Shown here: piece after piece, positions 9,850-24,146 of the stretch
Position numbering within the stretch: position 1 is the stretch's first letter
Layout: every line of letters begins with the position of its first letter
Source: a virus
Taxonomy: Duplodnaviria; Heunggongvirae; Uroviricota; Caudoviricetes
Strand: one strand, 5' to 3'
Length of the DNA stretch: 48,452 nt
IMG/VR virus record: IMGVR_UViG_2718218453_000005
Notes under the pieces: generated by a model
The model's database searches: none
What the model saw: the letters and a program-made list of their open reading frames with translations, nothing else
Told to the model about the DNA's origin: nothing
Translations under genes and position numbers: made by a program

Positions 9850-10187
9850 CAGATTACCACTTCGTCAAACTGACACGAAAAATCGGTATAGGTGATATGT
9901 TCTGTCGCTGACCACGTTCGACACACCACTCTGATTTTTCTGTTAATACCCGGCGGGCGCCAAAAAAAAGATTTATAGCCTTCATGCCGGGCTAAAAATT
10001 TTTCAAATGAATCACGTTCATTCGCCTCAACTTTGAAATCACAGGTGAAAACGCGCAGAGAATGATTAAGTCCATTTGGACTTCGTTGCTCATAACCATC
10101 GCCAAATCTTACAGTTTTTATCGATGGTTTATTTTCTGTTTTCATTCCATCCTCTGGTAACCAGTGAAATTCTTCCGTATTAGCCAC
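9849..10187 (-). CDS. M: minor tail protein M
   Basis: 112 aa; [12 protein letters not shown]... and C-terminal FDEVV resemble lambda M; position between tape measure and L. Confidence 0.8.
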
Positions 10188-13100
10188 TTAACATTCCCCC
10201 ATCACGTCGCATATTTAACAGATTGCCCTGCACCCGCTGATCAACCATCCCCATAAGTGCTTTTATTGCCTGAGGGCCAATCTCTCCATTCTGGCCGTCA
10301 TTTTGAATAGTGATTTGGTATACAGGGGCATAGGTAATATCTCCGCCTCCATTACCACTTTTACTATTAATAGCTCTGACACCAAGAGAACCATCGGAAG
10401 TTCGTGTTAATGGCATAATGGCTTCCGGACCAGCCTCACCAAAAACACCAGCCCCTCTTGCAAAAGCAAAAAATTGCGGGGAATCATAAATACCGTTCGA
10501 ATACGTGTTCAATGACGGAGACTCATAAACACCGCCCTTTGCATTCGGAATAAATTTACTAATAGCACTCCCGATAGTTCCTAAAATCCCCCCAGAAGAA
10601 CTGTTACTAATGCTGTCGAAAATCCCAGTAATTGAAGCCTTTAATGCTATTCGACTAAGATCCGAAATCACGGAAGTAGCGAAAGAACGAAAATTTGCCT
10701 TGCCTGTCGTGACAAAATCACCCAGCGCATCGGTCATTCCATCAAACATCTGAGTCGTGGTTGATTTTATCTGCTCACTGATATCCTTAGTGTCATCCAG
10801 CCAGTTATTGAATCCCTGGGAGGCACCACTAACCCAGTCTCCTGCCTGAATATCGAGCTGCTCGTTTTTCTGTCTGACAATTTCTTTTTCTCGTTCCAGA
10901 GCATCATTCAGAGCCTGCATTTTCTCCTGAAAAACATGATTTGACATCCCACGGGATTTATCTGCATAGTCACGTTCAAGTTGCAGACGCTGATTGTTAT
11001 ATTCACGTTCAATCCGCAGTAATTCCTGCTGGCGTTGCTGATTTTTATCGCCAACCCCATAACCAGCAATCTGAATATCATACCCCTGTTGACGATTATC
11101 AATCGAAGCCTGCAATGAATCACGCCATGCAGCTATTTCGGCGGATTCCTTGATTAGCCTGTTATTTTTTTCAATCGCAACATTTTTCTCCATCAACGCG
11201 GTTATTTCTTCCCGGTGTAAGAGAAGCGATTTCTGATCCTGGGTTAATTTCGATGACGGTCGTGACTCCAGGTCGGCAATCTGCTGACGCCACTTAACCA
11301 GTTCCTGTTCAGAGGAACTTAATTTAACGGTTAATTCAGTTTGTGAACTTAGTAACGCATTCTGTTGATTCAGATGATCAATCATTCGTTGGGCAGCATC
11401 ATCCGAATAACCTTTCGCCTTTGGTTGCTTTGGATCTTTATAACGTTCATTTATTTGAGCGATAAAATTATTATATTCTTCCTTTGAATACTGACTCTTT
11501 AGCTTTTCCAGTTTTGCAAGTTCACTAGCTCTCTGCTGCTCCCGGGTCTGATATTGTTTTGAAAAGGCATCTGCTCTCTGTCTGAGTTCAATTCCTTCCT
11601 GTTGTCGCTTGTTGTAATCGTTTATTGATGAATTTAGGACGTCCTGAGCAATTTTTTCTGCTTGAAGTACGCCCAATTGCTGCTTTAATCGTGCCAGCCT
11701 TTTATTTTGAGCTCCGCCATCTCCAATGCCACCTAACCCGAAAACTCCGGGTCGGGTATTTTTTTCTATTTCATCAATTTGACGGAGAACATCTGAGATT
11801 TTTTGATCAAGGGAGGCCTCACGGCCAATATCCAGCATGGAATCCCATGCCCATTTTGCGGAGTCTGCGACAGCTTTCCATGCAGTCTCAAGATAACCAA
11901 GATTTTCTTTAATCTGGTTGGTGCGCTGGATCATTGAGGATGAGTATGCTTCTGTCGCAATGCGGGCGGCCTCCTGCTGGTTCCCTTCATCCTGTAGCGC
12001 CTTAATCTGGTTATAAGTCGCAATTGTCAGAAAATGGTACTGATCATTAAGTTTTGATATGGCACTGACAGGATCCTTTGCAATTTCATTGAAGTCATTA
12101 ACCAGTTGTTCGGTTGATATTCCTGTTACTTCGCTCGTTTTTACTATCGCTGTCGTCACTTGCTCCAGCGAACTGCTCGCTACCTTTCCCGAACGCACAA
12201 GCTGGTTTAATACTGCCGCCGCAGCGCCAGTTGTCGAATCAGCCGCATTCCCGGCACGTTGAGCTATATCGGCCAATTGCCCGCTGGTTGTCCCCAACTG
12301 ATTTCCGGTAAGAATAAGAGATTTATTAAATTCGTCCTGCTCCTGAGAGCCTTTATAGTAAGCCAGCCCTAAGACGCCAACGGCTGCTGCGGCCAGGGTA
12401 AAAGGATTAATTAATCCCAGCACATAAGAACCAACACCTTTGATCGCCGGGCCAATCCCACCGAACATATCTTTTAGCTGGCCGCCCTGCTGCATTAACA
12501 CCATAAAAGGCGACTGACCAGTGGACAACCCAACAACAATATCCGTCATTTGTGCAGGCAACATGCGCATAGCAAAAGCCGTTTGTTTTGCCGACATTCC
12601 GGTTTTGCTTAATTGAGATTGAGTAACCTCAAGCTCACTCCGCATAGCACGAAGTTTTCCAGAAAGTTCCTCATACATTTCAGGAGAGAGCATCCCCTTA
12701 GCTTTTGCTTCATTGAGCTGTTTCTGTTGTTCTACCAGACGATTAAAAGCAGTTCCGACAGGGTCAAGTTGAGCAATCAGACGTTGCAAAGCAGCAACCT
12801 GTTCATCATGCGCTTTTGCTGCTTCTCGCTCTGCCTGAGCCTCTCCGGTAAGCTCTCGCCGTGTTTCCTGTATTTTTCGGCTATAATTCTCAAACTGAGA
12901 ACCATTTATTTTCCCGGATGCAAACGCAGCATTAAGTTCATCCTGCTGTTGTTCAAGATTTCTTAGCGCCGCAGCCAGAGGGTCGATCTTGTCCAGCATT
13001 CTTTGAAAGGCCTGAGCCTGCGCTTCCTGCTGGGCGGCAGCAAGTTTTCCGGCCTTCTCGGCTTCTCTCTGCGCTTGCGCAACCCCGCTCAATTCCTCTG

Positions 13101-13413
13101 TGGTTTCATTAAGTTTACGGACAAGAAATTCATATTCTTCTTTATCAATAAGCCCTTTATCGAAAAATTTCTTTAATTCAGAATAGCGTCGACCGACAGT
13201 ATCAATTGCGGCACCAACTGGATCAATAGCTGCTTTTAATTTTGCGAGCGCGTTCTTCTCATCTTCTGTTGCCTTGGTCACTTTCCCTGCGCTATTTGCA
13301 GCAGTTTCCCCGGCCTGCGTCATTTTGACTAATGAGGAGGTCAGATTGTCAGCATTATTTTTTGCTCCAGTGCTATCAATAATTATTGCGAGACGCGAGG
13401 TTTGCTCTGCCAT
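10180..13413 (-). CDS. tail tape measure protein
   Basis: 1077 aa, highly alpha-helical/coiled-coil, Gly-rich hydrophobic segment, located between GT chaperone and M; SD GGAG before ATG. Confidence 0.85.
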
Positions 13414-13425
13414 TTATTAAAACTC

Positions 13426-13452
13426 CAGACAACAAAAAGCCCACCGAAGTGG
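13426..13452 (-). terminator. terminator-like hairpin upstream of tape measure gene
   Basis: minus strand reads CCCAC-TTCG-GTGGG followed by CTTTTTGTT in the 164-nt gap between GT stop and tape-measure start. Confidence 0.35.
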
Positions 13453-13576
13453 GTTTCAGGCGACATAATAGTAGATATAGCGATTACGAGGCCACGCAAT
13501 GCTTTTCTCCAGGAGCATCATCGATTTAATTAAAGACACCATCACATCTCTGTAACAGAGTGTACGTAATTAACAA

Positions 13577-14346
13577 CTACACACACTGATCCTGAAAATA
13601 CTGGTCATCCAGTGCAAAGATCACTGCTTCAAACTCATCGCGCTCAATCAATACCGGATGAGTGGCTAAATATTCATTTATCTCTGTCAGAGATAAAGGC
13701 AAAGGCACCCCGGTCATTCCAGCATAACGTCGGGCACGGGATATTACCGAATAGGCGTACAACAATTCCTTAAGCACCGGGTCTATTTCTGGTTCCGGTA
13801 TCGGTGGCAACCTGAGTTTTTCTCGCTTCCATCTTGCCTTTTCCCCCCTTTCTCCCCCGAACTCCGATAACCACCGCTGGGCGGCTATGGCTTTTTTATC
13901 GTATCCTGCTTCTGCTGCTCTTTACCCTGGGCGATGCTGGCTGCTTCTGCAAGGATCTGCCAGTACAACTCTGGATTCTGCTTAAGCAGCGCGATCCCTC
14001 GTTCTGGCGTATATTCCAGTGCAACCTCAGCACCATTAACCAGTTCACCAACCCCTTTCCAGTCTTTCAGCAGATAACGAGCAGCATTATCAATGAGTAA
14101 ATCATCAACAGAATCTACCTCGGAAACCTTTGAAATATCAAACTCCTTCGTTCCGACGTGCAAACTGGCATCCATTTTCTCAATGTGACGACGGATTAAT
14201 GCATTACGGGAGCGATACTGATCGTTATCGCTGCTTGCCACCAACAGTTTTAACCCGTCTACAGGTTTTAAGTCCTTCATTGGCGTAAACCAGCGTTCTC
14301 CACCGATGATAATTTTCTGATTAAGAATAAACATACATAACCTCAT
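13577..14346 (-). CDS. tail assembly chaperone GT (predicted -1 frameshift fusion product)
   Basis: -1 frame is open from the slippery site at the end of G through ORF 13577..13810; arrangement identical to lambda G/GT. Confidence 0.6.
13885..14346 (-). CDS. tail assembly chaperone G
   Basis: 153 aa acidic protein immediately upstream of tape measure; alternative ATG at 14334 with GAGG SD. Confidence 0.75.
   Translation of the reverse strand: MRLCMFILNQKIIIGGERWFTPMKDLKPVDGLKLLVASSDNDQYRSRNALIRRHIEKMDASLHVGTKEFDISKVSEVDSVDDLLIDNAARYLLKDWKGVGELVNGAEVALEYTPERGIALLKQNPELYWQILAEAASIAQGKEQQKQDTIKKP
13891..13897 (-). other. programmed -1 ribosomal frameshift slippery heptamer A_AAA_AAG
   Basis: minus strand reads ATA AAA AAG CCA TAG at the end of G; canonical dnaX-type heptamer two codons before the G stop. 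Confidence 0.6.
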
Positions 14347-14394
14347 TCAATGCGTCCCCCTGTAGTGCAGTACCACAGGGGGAATAACGGAAAA

Positions 14395-15357
14395 TCAACT
14401 AATCGCATCAGCACTGGCTTTTGCGATCACGGCAGTTGGGGAGCATTTTTTTCTGGTTATCGTAGGTGCTTCATCTGCTGCGGTAATGCTCAATTGAACC
14501 TGGATAATGTCGCTATTACCCCCATCAGGCCATTCACCTGACACCTGAACCTTCGGGAAACTGAAAGTGTATGCCCCCTCTCCATTCGAAAGCGTGAAGC
14601 TGAACGGAACTGTTTCTCCAGTCAGTGTTTTACTCCAGATTTCCCACGCGGCTTTAGACCATGAAAGCGTCACCGTACCGGACGGTGTAAAAGTAGTCGG
14701 AATATTTGCTCCTGCATAAGGCGAGCCAGTCCCGATACAACGCTGTGTCTGGAGTTTGTTATCGAACTGAATATCAAAACTGTCGATACAAAAACCGTTA
14801 CCTCCGGCAACACCATTCAGGCTTACTGCTGAAACCTCCTTAAACGAATAACGTAGCTTTCCTGCACTATCCACAGGTTCGCCTTTGATAAAATTCGTAT
14901 CATCGGCCTTTGATTCCCAGTCCAGTCCGGCAAAGGTTACGGTCGCTGTAATATCGCCGTCGTTAGGGATCTGCATTTTCCATGAGCCAACCTGCGCTCC
15001 TCTGACGACAGAGGCAATTCCGACATCGGACGCATAGGTCGCCAGAGAAAATGTTATTCGCTCATTCCCCATTGTCAGAGAATCGCCTGACCATTCCGCG
15101 CCGAAACAGGATGCAAGAAAATCATCATGTTGACCCCAGCGAAATTTGGTACCAACATCACCGCCGACATCCACAGTGCCAGGCGTCGCCCCCTGAGCCA
15201 TCCGGGAGCCACCAATCTCATTATTTTCGCCTTTATTCTGGGTGAGTTTTACTCCCCAGCTTGTGCGTTTTAATAAACTCCAGTCACCACTTGCTGGCGT
15301 AGTGCCTGCAACCGTCTCCCGGATAAATGCCGAGATAACCTTTGCACCTGAACTCAC
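14395..15357 (-). CDS. major tail tube protein
   Basis: 320 aa, position upstream of G/GT, Gly/Thr/Ser-rich beta-type composition. Confidence 0.7.
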   Translation of the reverse strand: MSSGAKVISAFIRETVAGTTPASGDWSLLKRTSWGVKLTQNKGENNEIGGSRMAQGATPGTVDVGGDVGTKFRWGQHDDFLASCFGAEWSGDSLTMGNERITFSLATYASDVGIASVVRGAQVGSWKMQIPNDGDITATVTFAGLDWESKADDTNFIKGEPVDSAGKLRYSFKEVSAVSLNGVAGGNGFCIDSFDIQFDNKLQTQRCIGTGSPYAGANIPTTFTPSGTVTLSWSKAAWEIWSKTLTGETVPFSFTLSNGEGAYTFSFPKVQVSGEWPDGGNSDIIQVQLSITAADEAPTITRKKCSPTAVIAKASADAIS

Positions 15358-21766: not shown

Positions 21767-23074
21767 TTAAATCCGAAGTGATGTGACTCTTCCGGTCGGT
21801 TTGACAATAGGGAATTGCTTAACGATGAAATAACCTCCGGCATCATTCGGGTGATCATTGCCAGATTTTTTATCAGGCTCCCCCTTCTCATCCCAGACCT
21901 GTTGCTCCAGAGATTCGGCATATAACGGGCAACGCTTCACATTAACTTTATAGCGACGCTCACCATTGGCATTGCAGAACATTGCATTCATTGAGTTAAC
22001 GCGATCTTTTACTGGCGGGTTCGAGCTGTTCACCACAACGTTAAAACCAGCCTGCTTAAGCTGGGCTATATCCGTCGTACTTGCGTTACTTGATTTTCTG
22101 GAATCCCCGGAAGCATCTGGATAAATATAAATTTCCCTCACTTTCCGGTAATCATTCCCATCATACAGCCAGAAGCGTTCTTTAATGATGCGGATCATAT
22201 CCGGCGTATCGTAGGCATTGATGATTTCAGTTACCGCACATGGAAGCCCCAAACGCAGCACATGGACGATTCCCGCCATCTTTCCAACGTTAAAATCCAT
22301 CCCAATATAAATCGGCTCCCCTGGCTGCTCCACTTCTTCGCAATTATTCAGTTTCCGGTCAAACTGATGGTAAACAGTACCACTTGTCAGGTTAGTAAAC
22401 TGTCCTCGAAGATAGGCTTTAATCAGCTCTGGAGGGTATGATTCAAGAAGCGAAGGAATGTAATCTGCTGGCAGGTTCTTTTCATTATCGAAAGTAGATG
22501 CCTGCACCAGACCATACAGTGAGGCCAGCTCTGTTTTTTCACGCACGGCTTTAACAAACTGCTCGTAGACAAATTTGAATCCTTCCGGCGTGGTTGTAAC
22601 GTCAATACCGTTGCGAAGTCCATCAATCTTATAACGCATACGTGCAATTATCTTGCGCCACGCCGTTCTGGCTTTTTCCTTCGGCAAAATGTCCAGTTCA
22701 TCCACCAACGCATTACCAATTTTGAAACCGACGATCGTTTGTGGCTTCTCCATCGATCTGCAGATAGTGGTTCCCCGATACTGGCGTCCGTAATAAAAGT
22801 GAACCTCTTTATTTCCCTCATTAATTTTTACGTTCAATCCCCAGTCAGCAGCAACTTCTTCCACTGTAGGGTAAAAAATATCGCGAATTTGGGGATACGT
22901 TGGCGCAAAATATCCCTGATTTATACCTGGATGCTCCCAAATCCCCTTGCATATGCCGCCACACCCAACCCATGTTTTGCCCGAGCCAAAACCAGCAATA
23001 TAGGCTTTAAATTTATGGGGCATTGAAAGAAATCGCGCCTGAGGCACATTAAGCGTCGGAGAGATCATCTTCAT
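21767..23074 (-). CDS. terminase large subunit
   Basis: Walker A-like GFGSGKT near N-terminus, acidic nuclease-type C-terminal half; first ATG at 23074 (ORF-track start 23077 is GTG). Confidence 0.85.
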   Translation of the reverse strand: MKMISPTLNVPQARFLSMPHKFKAYIAGFGSGKTWVGCGGICKGIWEHPGINQGYFAPTYPQIRDIFYPTVEEVAADWGLNVKINEGNKEVHFYYGRQYRGTTICRSMEKPQTIVGFKIGNALVDELDILPKEKARTAWRKIIARMRYKIDGLRNGIDVTTTPEGFKFVYEQFVKAVREKTELASLYGLVQASTFDNEKNLPADYIPSLLESYPPELIKAYLRGQFTNLTSGTVYHQFDRKLNNCEEVEQPGEPIYIGMDFNVGKMAGIVHVLRLGLPCAVTEIINAYDTPDMIRIIKERFWLYDGNDYRKVREIYIYPDASGDSRKSSNASTTDIAQLKQAGFNVVVNSSNPPVKDRVNSMNAMFCNANGERRYKVNVKRCPLYAESLEQQVWDEKGEPDKKSGNDHPNDAGGYFIVKQFPIVKPTGRVTSLRI

Positions 23075-24143
23075 CACTCCTTACTCTGGCATCAACCACA
23101 TTAATATTGATCGCCACAGGCTGGGGATGTTCATTATCTTCCACCGTTTCGATCTCTTTGCGCAGCTTCTGGTTTTCCATTCTGCGCCGTTCAATTTCCA
23201 GTTCCTGTAGCCGCTTATCTGCACATAAAGCCCCGCCAGCAGAAAACAAACGCAACAATTCACGCCGGGCGGCAGCCTTATCCTCCAGCAGGATCTCAAC
23301 GCCGAATTTTCCGAATTTTGCCCCTGCATATAATTGCCGCGCATCCCCATCAAGCAGAGTGGTATCAGCCATATAAAGCTGTCCCGTTCCCTCACCGCAG
23401 CACTTCGGGCAGTCCGGATTGGGTATGGCGTTATCAACAAAGCCGAGGCCTCCATATTCCGGTTCGGGTTTGCCATCTCTGGAAGCCTGCGCCGCTGCCT
23501 TGTCGAATTCTGCTATATCGCGCCACTGGTAGAGATGATTCTCGCCCCAGCAATAACGGCAGTTAACACGGCGAAATTGTGCAAGCTGATTGGGGTCGGC
23601 CAGGACAATAGCCATCAACTGACTCACTAGTAAATCCAGGTCTGCGGTATAGCGTTTCTGGTACTGATTGCGGAAGTAGCTGATAGCGCGAAAAACCCTG
23701 GCATTTCTAAGCATACGACTGGCGTTGCTGTTAGCTGTCGCACCTTGCCCCTCATAACCGGCTAGTCGGTACGCCTCTGTCGGCTTTTTACCCTGAGCAA
23801 CAAGCATTGCAAACTTAACCTGCTGGTCAGAAATGCCGAATTCATCGGGACAGAACGAAAATTCCTCCGCGTCGCCCTCATTCAGGCCCGCATCGAATAC
23901 TGGCTTTTTTTCCTGAGATTTTTCGTTCCGCTTTTGTGCAGTCTGCGCAGATTTTTTCTGCGCACTTTTTTGCGCAGTTTTGCACATTTCTGTCTGCGCA
24001 TTTTTCGGAGTTTTTTTGATGTAACGACGGGCTGTTGCGTAATTCAGTCCCCTTGCTTCACACCATGCCACCGGAGATATACCGGAGCGGGTGTATTCAG
24101 CAATATACTCCTGCTGCAACGCCCCCCAGTCCGGTCTGCTCAT
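23049..24143 (-). CDS. terminase small subunit
   Basis: N-terminal HTH-like GISPVAWCEARGLNYATARRYIKK, Lys/Gln-rich linker, immediately upstream of and overlapping TerL. Confidence 0.7.
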   Translation of the reverse strand: MSRPDWGALQQEYIAEYTRSGISPVAWCEARGLNYATARRYIKKTPKNAQTEMCKTAQKSAQKKSAQTAQKRNEKSQEKKPVFDAGLNEGDAEEFSFCPDEFGISDQQVKFAMLVAQGKKPTEAYRLAGYEGQGATANSNASRMLRNARVFRAISYFRNQYQKRYTADLDLLVSQLMAIVLADPNQLAQFRRVNCRYCWGENHLYQWRDIAEFDKAAAQASRDGKPEPEYGGLGFVDNAIPNPDCPKCCGEGTGQLYMADTTLLDGDARQLYAGAKFGKFGVEILLEDKAAARRELLRLFSAGGALCADKRLQELEIERRRMENQKLRKEIETVEDNEHPQPVAININVVDARVRSDEDDLSDA

Positions 24144-24146
24144 CAG

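Follow-up and report, generated by a model that had tools for sequence, protein, structure and literature searches.

A lambda G/GT-type programmed −1 ribosomal frameshift is very probable in the YdaY-type tail assembly chaperone gene of a Rac-family Escherichia coli prophage

Introduction

The G/GT frameshift of the tail assembly chaperone genes is a textbook feature of long-tailed phages, and sequence homology to the lambda proteins is not what defines the class, the families of which are notoriously diverged. The frameshift signal of the E. coli dnaX gene (gamma/tau) has a strong Shine–Dalgarno (SD) sequence (AGGGAG) 10 nt before the slip site and a stable hairpin 6 nt after it, and about 50% of ribosomes shift, giving a shorter product. 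The lambda −1 frameshift was described by Levin, Hendrix and Casjens in 1993 and by Xu, Hendrix and Duda in 2004, 2013 and 2014, as summarised in PMC5009743; a G:GT ratio of about 30:1 is needed in lambda (PMC5009743), and two HK97-like chaperone genes gave 6–7% frameshifting in reporters (PMC3711429). Among E. coli prophages, the ECs1801/ECs1802 pair of prophage Sp9 in strain O157:H7 Sakai is placed in cluster A_AAA_AAG_25 and rated 'true / safely inferred' (Sharma et al. 2014, PMC4066793).

Here, we analyse a G/T pair in a 48,452-nt stretch of DNA (IMG/VR record IMGVR_UViG_2718218453_000005; the whole stretch is referred to as the window). Like lambda, the window carries two open reading frames (ORFs) that are flanked by the major tail gene and the tape-measure gene, and the second of them is in the −1 frame and has no start of its own; in both, a heptamer ending in A_AAG is found close to the 3′ end of G, GT exceeds G in length, and there is no obvious conserved downstream structure. 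The two differ in that the window has A_AAA_AAG 3 nt from the G stop whereas lambda has G_GGA_AAG 15 nt from it. With dnaX the window shares the identical A_AAA_AAG and the same tRNA-Lys, and it has an SD-like element upstream as a candidate stimulator; unlike dnaX, it has only an AGGA at 6 nt, no conserved hairpin, a longer product and a low expected rate. ECs1801 is, like the window gene, a lambdoid prophage tail chaperone with the same heptamer at its very end (AGA AAA AAG TAG) and a T-like ORF following, but it belongs to PHROG 344/337 instead of 313/1189 and gives no BLASTP alignment with the G protein of the window. The same heptamer in the same place is already known, then, from the unrelated ECs1801; what is new is the membership of the YdaY-type family in this class, which is absent from public records. 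We consider it very probable that ribosomes undergo a programmed −1 frameshift at this locus, as they do in lambda G/GT.

Results and discussion

Genomic setting and public annotation

Identity between the region and E. coli chromosomes reaches 100% (strain 190, NZ_CP020520), and the locus is an intact Rac-family prophage with its late genes on the minus strand of the window. RefSeq gives the gene order as tail terminator, tail tube, 'ydaY', a 66-aa 'hypothetical protein', tape measure and M/L/K/I/J-type tail-tip genes. Upstream of the pair lies the major tail tube protein gene (14395..15357, minus strand, from the RefSeq annotation of the 100%-identical record) and downstream the gene for the 1077-aa tail tape-measure protein (10180..13413, minus strand, from the ORF list and RefSeq), the G/T pair being placed between tube and tape-measure genes as in the lambda-type class. 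Of 5426 complete E. coli genomes, 1073 (about a fifth) contain related DNA.

Both RefSeq and GenBank annotate the pair as 'YdaY' plus a separate short 'hypothetical protein', the latter started at GTG 13777 (66 aa). A slippage-annotated fusion for enteric members was found in none of the database entries among the homologues listed, and a literature search on ydaY, or on Rac together with tail chaperone, returned nothing relevant; ydaY is also absent from those texts of Sharma et al. (PMC4066793) and Antonov et al. that were searched. In the Rac remnant of K-12 MG1655 (L002:2993-3660), ydaY is an N-terminally truncated G that retains the in-phase A_AAA_AAG, and the T frame is intact but unannotated, with 104 codons and two residues different from the window; G of the window is 98% identical to this remnant. 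The main value of the present analysis lies in annotation: the 252-aa GT protein is missing from RefSeq and GenBank and recognising the frameshift would correct the gene models. With it, ydaY gains a putative function, as the remnant of a tail assembly chaperone, and one more family comes under the conserved G/GT rule; the understanding of frameshifting itself is unchanged by the YdaY-type case.

Gene models of G and T

Gene G, the ydaY homologue, occupies 13885..14334 on the minus strand and encodes a 149-aa tail assembly chaperone followed by a TAG stop. Its end, at 13900..13885 of the minus strand, reads G ATA AAA AAG CCA TAG. The ORF 13885..14346 translates as ...QDTIKKP*, so ATA, AAA, AAG, CCA and TAG are zero-frame codons of G; because of this, A_AAA_AAG (13897..13891, minus strand) has the X_XXY_YYZ phasing of a −1 tandem slip, with AAA in the P site and AAG in the A site. 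The sequence, coordinates and frames of this site are as an earlier note on this DNA had given them. In the −1 frame, a TAA at 13924..13922 is followed by no further stop until 13579..13577, which bears out the same note's claim of an open frame down to 13577. Between this TAA and the G stop TAG (13887..13885), the two frames overlap over 13885..13924 of the minus strand, that is, over 11 codons, and A_AAA_AAG is the sole slippery site inside the overlap. The T segment, read in the −1 frame after the slip (GCC ATA GCC ...), covers 13577..13891 on the minus strand and comprises 104 codons and a TAG stop. A slip at the heptamer would thus join G residues 1–148 to these 104 codons in a 252-aa GT fusion, and the first start-type codon in the −1 frame occurs only 27 codons past the slip site, without an SD sequence.

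Translation of G most likely begins at ATG 14334, rather than at the ATG of the longest ORF (14346) or at the RefSeq start (14244), because the PHROG 313 alignment begins at the Met of ATG 14334 and homologues begin there as well (MFILNQK or MLII..). A GAGG lies at 14344..14341, 6 nt upstream of this ATG. The RefSeq start of ydaY is an internal Met at 14244 (119 aa), 30 codons too far downstream, and is used even in intact prophages; it was apparently inherited from the truncated K-12 gene.

For detection of the fusion, digestion with Asp-N or Glu-C is predicted to yield the GT junction peptide DTIKKAIAAQRWLSE. The T-frame peptides AIAAQR and WLSEFGGER would likewise come from the frameshift only, because they are encoded upstream of any start codon in the −1 frame.

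Protein families of G and T

G matches PHROG 313 'tail assembly chaperone' over residues 5–153 with an E value of 6.7e-47; the profile, which has 258 positions, also covers the T part, weakly, with its C-terminal half. T matches PHROG 1189 (E = 5.6e-36) and reaches 20 bits against the Pfam family Phage_TAC_18, below the cut-off of 27; the proteins listed as homologues included none that consisted of T only. G itself gave no match in NCBIfam, in the Pfam copy that was searched or, by sequence, in the PDB. A newer Pfam family, PF27119.1, is precomputed on 120 of 120 among the G homologues listed. On these profile matches, G is a member of the YdaY-type chaperone family (PHROG 313; PF27119).

The fold predicted for G matches that of the HK97 chaperone (PDB 2ob9) at a sequence identity of 7%, and the model indicates that G has the tail-assembly-chaperone fold. 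In comparison with 2ob9, the G model, which is of moderate confidence, carries an extra long C-terminal helix. Neither G nor T shows sequence similarity to lambda gpG or gpT in BLASTP (E of 40 or worse), so that the pair is either an analogue or a very remote relative of the lambda proteins.

The heptamer as signal or chance occurrence

The string AAAAAAG occurs 26 times in the window, counting both strands, and is therefore too common to prove anything by itself. Its position is more telling: from the window's own frequencies, the chance that an efficient heptamer falls in phase within an overlap of 11–13 codons is P of about 0.004, where AAAAAAG, GGGAAAG and CCCAAAG were counted as efficient (these work well in E. 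coli). Three in-phase efficient heptamers exist in the long ORFs of the window, and only at the G site does the zero frame end at once (one codon left) while the −1 frame continues for more than 100 codons. The other two would give truncated products: a G_GGA_AAG near 12190 (minus strand), inside the tape-measure gene, where the −1 frame stops after 28 codons, and an A_AAA_AAG near 23910 (minus strand), in a 365-aa ORF (24146..23049), where it stops after 8. In E. coli genes generally, in-phase A_AAA_AAG is strongly avoided (z = −10.1; PMC4066793 Table S3).

A GGGAAAA run that had been noticed about 50 nt downstream, its frame left unchecked, does exist (13845..13839, 46 nt away), but a role in the signal was rejected as its phase is wrong. 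In the T frame it reads AGG GGG GAA AAG, and G_GGA_AAA phasing is obtained only in the untranslated third frame; the run encodes a conserved G-E-K of T, the codons of which vary synonymously in relatives.

Conservation and frame switch among enteric relatives

The relatives collected were 80 loci from IMG/VR, 11 loci from species-representative genomes and several annotated phages, and conservation was counted over the 90 loci that carry the conserved AQGKEQ motif. RTA AAA AAG is present in the G frame in 89 of these 90 loci, from at least 7 genera, the heptamer being kept in Escherichia, Shigella, four Citrobacter species, Klebsiella/Raoultella, Dryocola and Entomohabitans. The codons around it vary synonymously (GGT/GGA/GGC/GGG for Gly, CAG/CAA for Gln, ACG/ACC/ACT for Thr and CCA/CCT/CCC/CCG for Pro). 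In the enteric loci that keep the heptamer, by comparison, the two Lys codons invariably read AAA followed by AAG, and the codon before them, for Ile or Val, has A in its third position throughout (ATA or GTA). Both flanking stops are mobile: the G stop lies 3, 27, 81 or 93 nt past the heptamer (TAG having become TTG or TCG), and the upstream −1-frame stop lies 11 to 80 codons from it. As both stops move while the heptamer stays, selection holds the heptamer and not the stops.

At the heptamer, the frame that is under purifying selection changes from that of G to the −1 frame. Over the 90 nt upstream, 63% of pairwise codon differences are synonymous in the G frame and 3–4% in the other frames; over the 75 nt downstream, the synonymous share is 59% for the −1 frame, against 14% for the G frame and 7% for the third. 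The variation at the junction narrows the switch to the heptamer itself, since the Thr codon directly before it varies at its G-frame third position and the triplet after GCC varies as ATA/ATT/ATC, a synonymous change for the −1 frame that gives stop, Leu or Ser in the G frame. There is no ATG, GTG or TTG in the −1 frame in the 75 nt after the heptamer. The frame switch implies that the stretch AIAAQRWLSEFGGERGEKARWKREKLR is translated and that it can be reached only by a shift at the heptamer.

These observations bear directly on the public gene model, in which T would be a separate gene with its own start, at GTG 13777 (66 aa) or alternatively at TTG 13810, and the heptamer an incidental Lys-Lys pair. 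Both RefSeq and GenBank present the locus in this way, and the Val codon GTG is conserved in relatives; against this, the 27 −1-frame codons that separate the heptamer from the earliest possible start (AIAAQRWLSEFGGERGEKARWKREKLR) show conservation of the protein sequence between genera (synonymous fraction 0.59), and they are not preceded by any start codon. Moreover, there is no SD-like sequence before either 13810 or 13777, the heptamer is invariant while its neighbours drift, and the two-frame layout persists down to 30% identity. Translation of AIAAQRWLSEFGGERGEKARWKREKLR by way of the shift contradicts the free-standing T from GTG 13777, and we regard a separate T gene as highly improbable. 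The geometry of the locus, the conservation in 89 of 90 loci and the frame switch at the heptamer together support the earlier proposal that the site reproduces the conserved G/GT programmed frameshift.

In one relative, P0001 (240 aa; NB16F79_39920 of E. coli), the loss of 37 nt between two direct repeats, GCAGAAGCAG, shortly before the heptamer has put G and T into a single frame, so that only a GT-like protein could be made there. The use of such natural G-T fusions as 'Rosetta stone' evidence was considered and set aside as weak at best, P0001 being a deletion and P0002, P0003 and P0011 having the look of indel-ridden assemblies.

Candidate stimulators

Upstream of the heptamer, at a distance of 6 nt, an SD-like AGGA (13904..13907, minus strand) is a candidate stimulator. 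It is present at the same spacing in 24 of 24 unique enteric sequences, at the short edge of the range published for upstream SD-like elements (a spacing of 6–17 nt; PMC4066793), and overlaps the codons CAG GAT/GAA. The Gln codon within AGGA is always CAG, and the neighbouring Gln codon alternates between CAG and CAA; because of the overlap with CAG GAT/GAA, however, coding constraint on this stretch is inseparable from any signal. The heptamer is probably the main determinant of the slip, and the conserved AGGA may add to its effect.

Directly 3′ of the heptamer, the local hairpin CCAUAGCCGCC-CAGC-GGUGGUUAU(C)GG (13864..13890, minus strand) has a folding energy of about −14.7 kcal/mol, which is no better than that of shuffled sequences (z of about −0.4 to −0.5). 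A search for a downstream stimulatory structure had been suggested in the earlier note, and no conserved one emerged from folds compared with shuffles, from the alignment fold or from hairpin criteria. The consensus fold of 12 diverse relatives gave −3 kcal/mol and no compensatory pairs; 14 of the 24 unique sequences qualify by published hairpin criteria, with shapes unrelated to one another; and in Rfam no family matched, with nothing near threshold. A conserved downstream structure was thus rejected on the grounds of shuffle-like folds, lack of covariation and heterogeneous shapes. It is possible that the hairpin at 13864..13890 acts as a weak stimulator specific to the E. coli clade, but it is probably not required.

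Distant relatives and exchange of signal parts

The two-frame arrangement is kept among relatives down to 30% identity, and in an alignment of six divergent chaperones the Lys at the A-site codon (AAG) is invariant. In Acinetobacter phages, the homologous site is G_GGA_AAG, found at about 78 loci and down to 35% identity. One of these phages, vB_AbaS_TRS1 (NC_031098), has an annotated joined tail-assembly-chaperone CDS, gp18/gp19. TRS1 is a distant member of the same G/T family as the window (G 21% and T about 37% identical) and would slip at the homologous invariant Lys codon; unlike the window, it uses G_GGA_AAG, located 78 nt ahead of the stop codon of G, and its two frames overlap by 34 codons.

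The 21 Pseudomonas-phage loci (L100-L120, the phiPSA1 group) have no canonical in-phase heptamer, and CTG GAA AAG (G_GAA_AAG) is invariant among them, at about nt 400–470 of G. In several of these loci, −1-frame stops 3–4 codons upstream pin the shift at CTG GAA AAG. The 30 nt after the site are identical at 28–30 of 30 positions even where G is 61% identical; a hairpin of −17 kcal/mol starts about 3 nt after the site, in a stretch that is dual-coding, such that constraints on structure and coding are inseparable. The Erwinia phage Gungnir39 (L004:1960-2000), the sole enteric-type relative without the heptamer, reads GTC GCA AAG TAA, with only A_AAG left and the G stop directly after it. Judged from these alignments, the constant element of the family is A_AAG read by tRNA-Lys.

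A further origin of the fusion would be transcriptional slippage: gain or loss of an A by RNA polymerase at the A6 run would place G and T in the same frame in a subpopulation of mRNA. The bacterial enzyme typically needs runs of 8–9 or more to slip at a useful level; the site does have a homopolymeric run, but at six A it is shorter than that, and the distant homologous sites have only 3–4 A (G_GGA_AAG, G_GAA_AAG and GCA_AAG), so that the conserved feature is the A_AAG of tRNA-Lys and not the homopolymer. Although homopolymer slippage is a known route in other systems (PMC5009743), we consider it extremely unlikely to be the one used here.

The same invariance of A_AAG, the only element kept family-wide, raises the question of how many tRNAs take part in the slip. 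The A-site tRNA-Lys could slip alone on A_AAG, with the first AAA playing a minor part and the rate being set by a stimulator that has escaped recognition (AGGA or some undetected structure); A_AAG is the most shift-prone tetramer in E. coli, at 5.6% with a pseudoknot compared with at most 1.8% for the others (PMC4066793 Table S2), and the fixed spacing of AGGA in all the unique enteric sequences would fit a stimulator of this kind. Heptamers, however, outperform the tetramer with the same stimulators (PMC4066793), and the enteric loci keep the full heptamer, including a rare ATA or GTA codon that supplies its first A; as the use of ATA or GTA is invariant there, we argue that the P-site half is selected too. 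Single-tRNA slippage as the mechanism at the window site is accordingly very unlikely, while a purely single-tRNA slip is possible in the distant clades.

The signal parts around the tandem slip site differ between host clades: enteric loci have A_AAA_AAG with the upstream AGGA and no conserved structure, the Acinetobacter phages have G_GGA_AAG, the Pseudomonas phages have G_GAA_AAG with an almost invariant 30–60 nt after the site, and the one Erwinia phage has GCA_AAG. A tentative and rather doubtful reading of this pattern is that the slip position is fixed at the Lys AAG while each host clade has remade the other signal parts, as real compensation. If true, the compensation would set a weak slip site with a strong stimulator against a strong slip site alone, the family would offer a natural series in which frameshift efficiency is held constant while parts are exchanged, and it would add a working non-canonical heptamer.

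Proposed mechanism and expected rate

In the programmed −1 frameshift that we favour, most ribosomes would read ATA AAA AAG CCA and stop at TAG, producing the 149-aa G protein. A minority would slip back by one base with tRNA-Lys on AAA in the P site and on AAG in the A site; both tRNAs would re-pair on AAA AAA, and decoding would resume at GCC ATA GCC ..., so that 104 codons of the −1 frame are read and the 252-aa GT protein results. Purely by analogy with lambda, many G and few GT subunits would coat the tape-measure protein, and the T domain would recruit the tail-tube protein; on that analogy, the slip rate would set a fixed G:GT ratio. For this prophage, we infer both the slip itself and the roles of G and T from these parallels.

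The earlier note had contrasted the heptamer, as dnaX-type, with the G_GGA_AAG of lambda. The distinction stands for the sequence but not for function: in E. coli reporters A_AAA_AAG and G_GGA_AAG gave 0.29 and 0.28% when bare (PMC4066793 Table S3), 4.3 and 3.8% with the IS911 stimulators and 39 and 43% with the IS3 pseudoknot stimulator (PMC4066793). As the measured behaviour of the two heptamers is equal, the contrast with lambda carries no functional weight. Taken together, the 30:1 ratio of lambda, the 6–7% of the HK97-like genes and these heptamer data lead us to expect, by analogy, that the slip rate probably lies in the range from a few tenths of a percent to a few percent. With no conserved structure and a bare heptamer at about 0.3%, it could be below the roughly 3% of lambda.

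Other features of the tail operon

Two further hairpins flank the G/T pair. The gap from the tube stop to the G start is 60 nt long and contains a strong, GC-rich hairpin of 12 bp (14355-14383, minus strand; UCCCCCUGUGGU...ACUACAGGGGGA); the 60-nt segment folds at −22 kcal/mol (z = −2.6), and no U-run follows the hairpin. This hairpin may reduce the expression of G compared with that of the tube protein, or may stabilise the mRNA upstream of it. A terminator-like hairpin with a T-run (13430-13453, minus strand; CCCACTTCGGTGGG CTTTTTGTTG) lies within the 163 nt that separate the stop of T from the start of the tape-measure gene, in the middle of the tail operon. According to the RefSeq annotation of the identical strain, the late genes include the trkG potassium transporter gene, the prophage carries two tRNA genes (Thr and Gly), and the sitABCD iron/manganese transporter genes adjoin its tail-fibre end.
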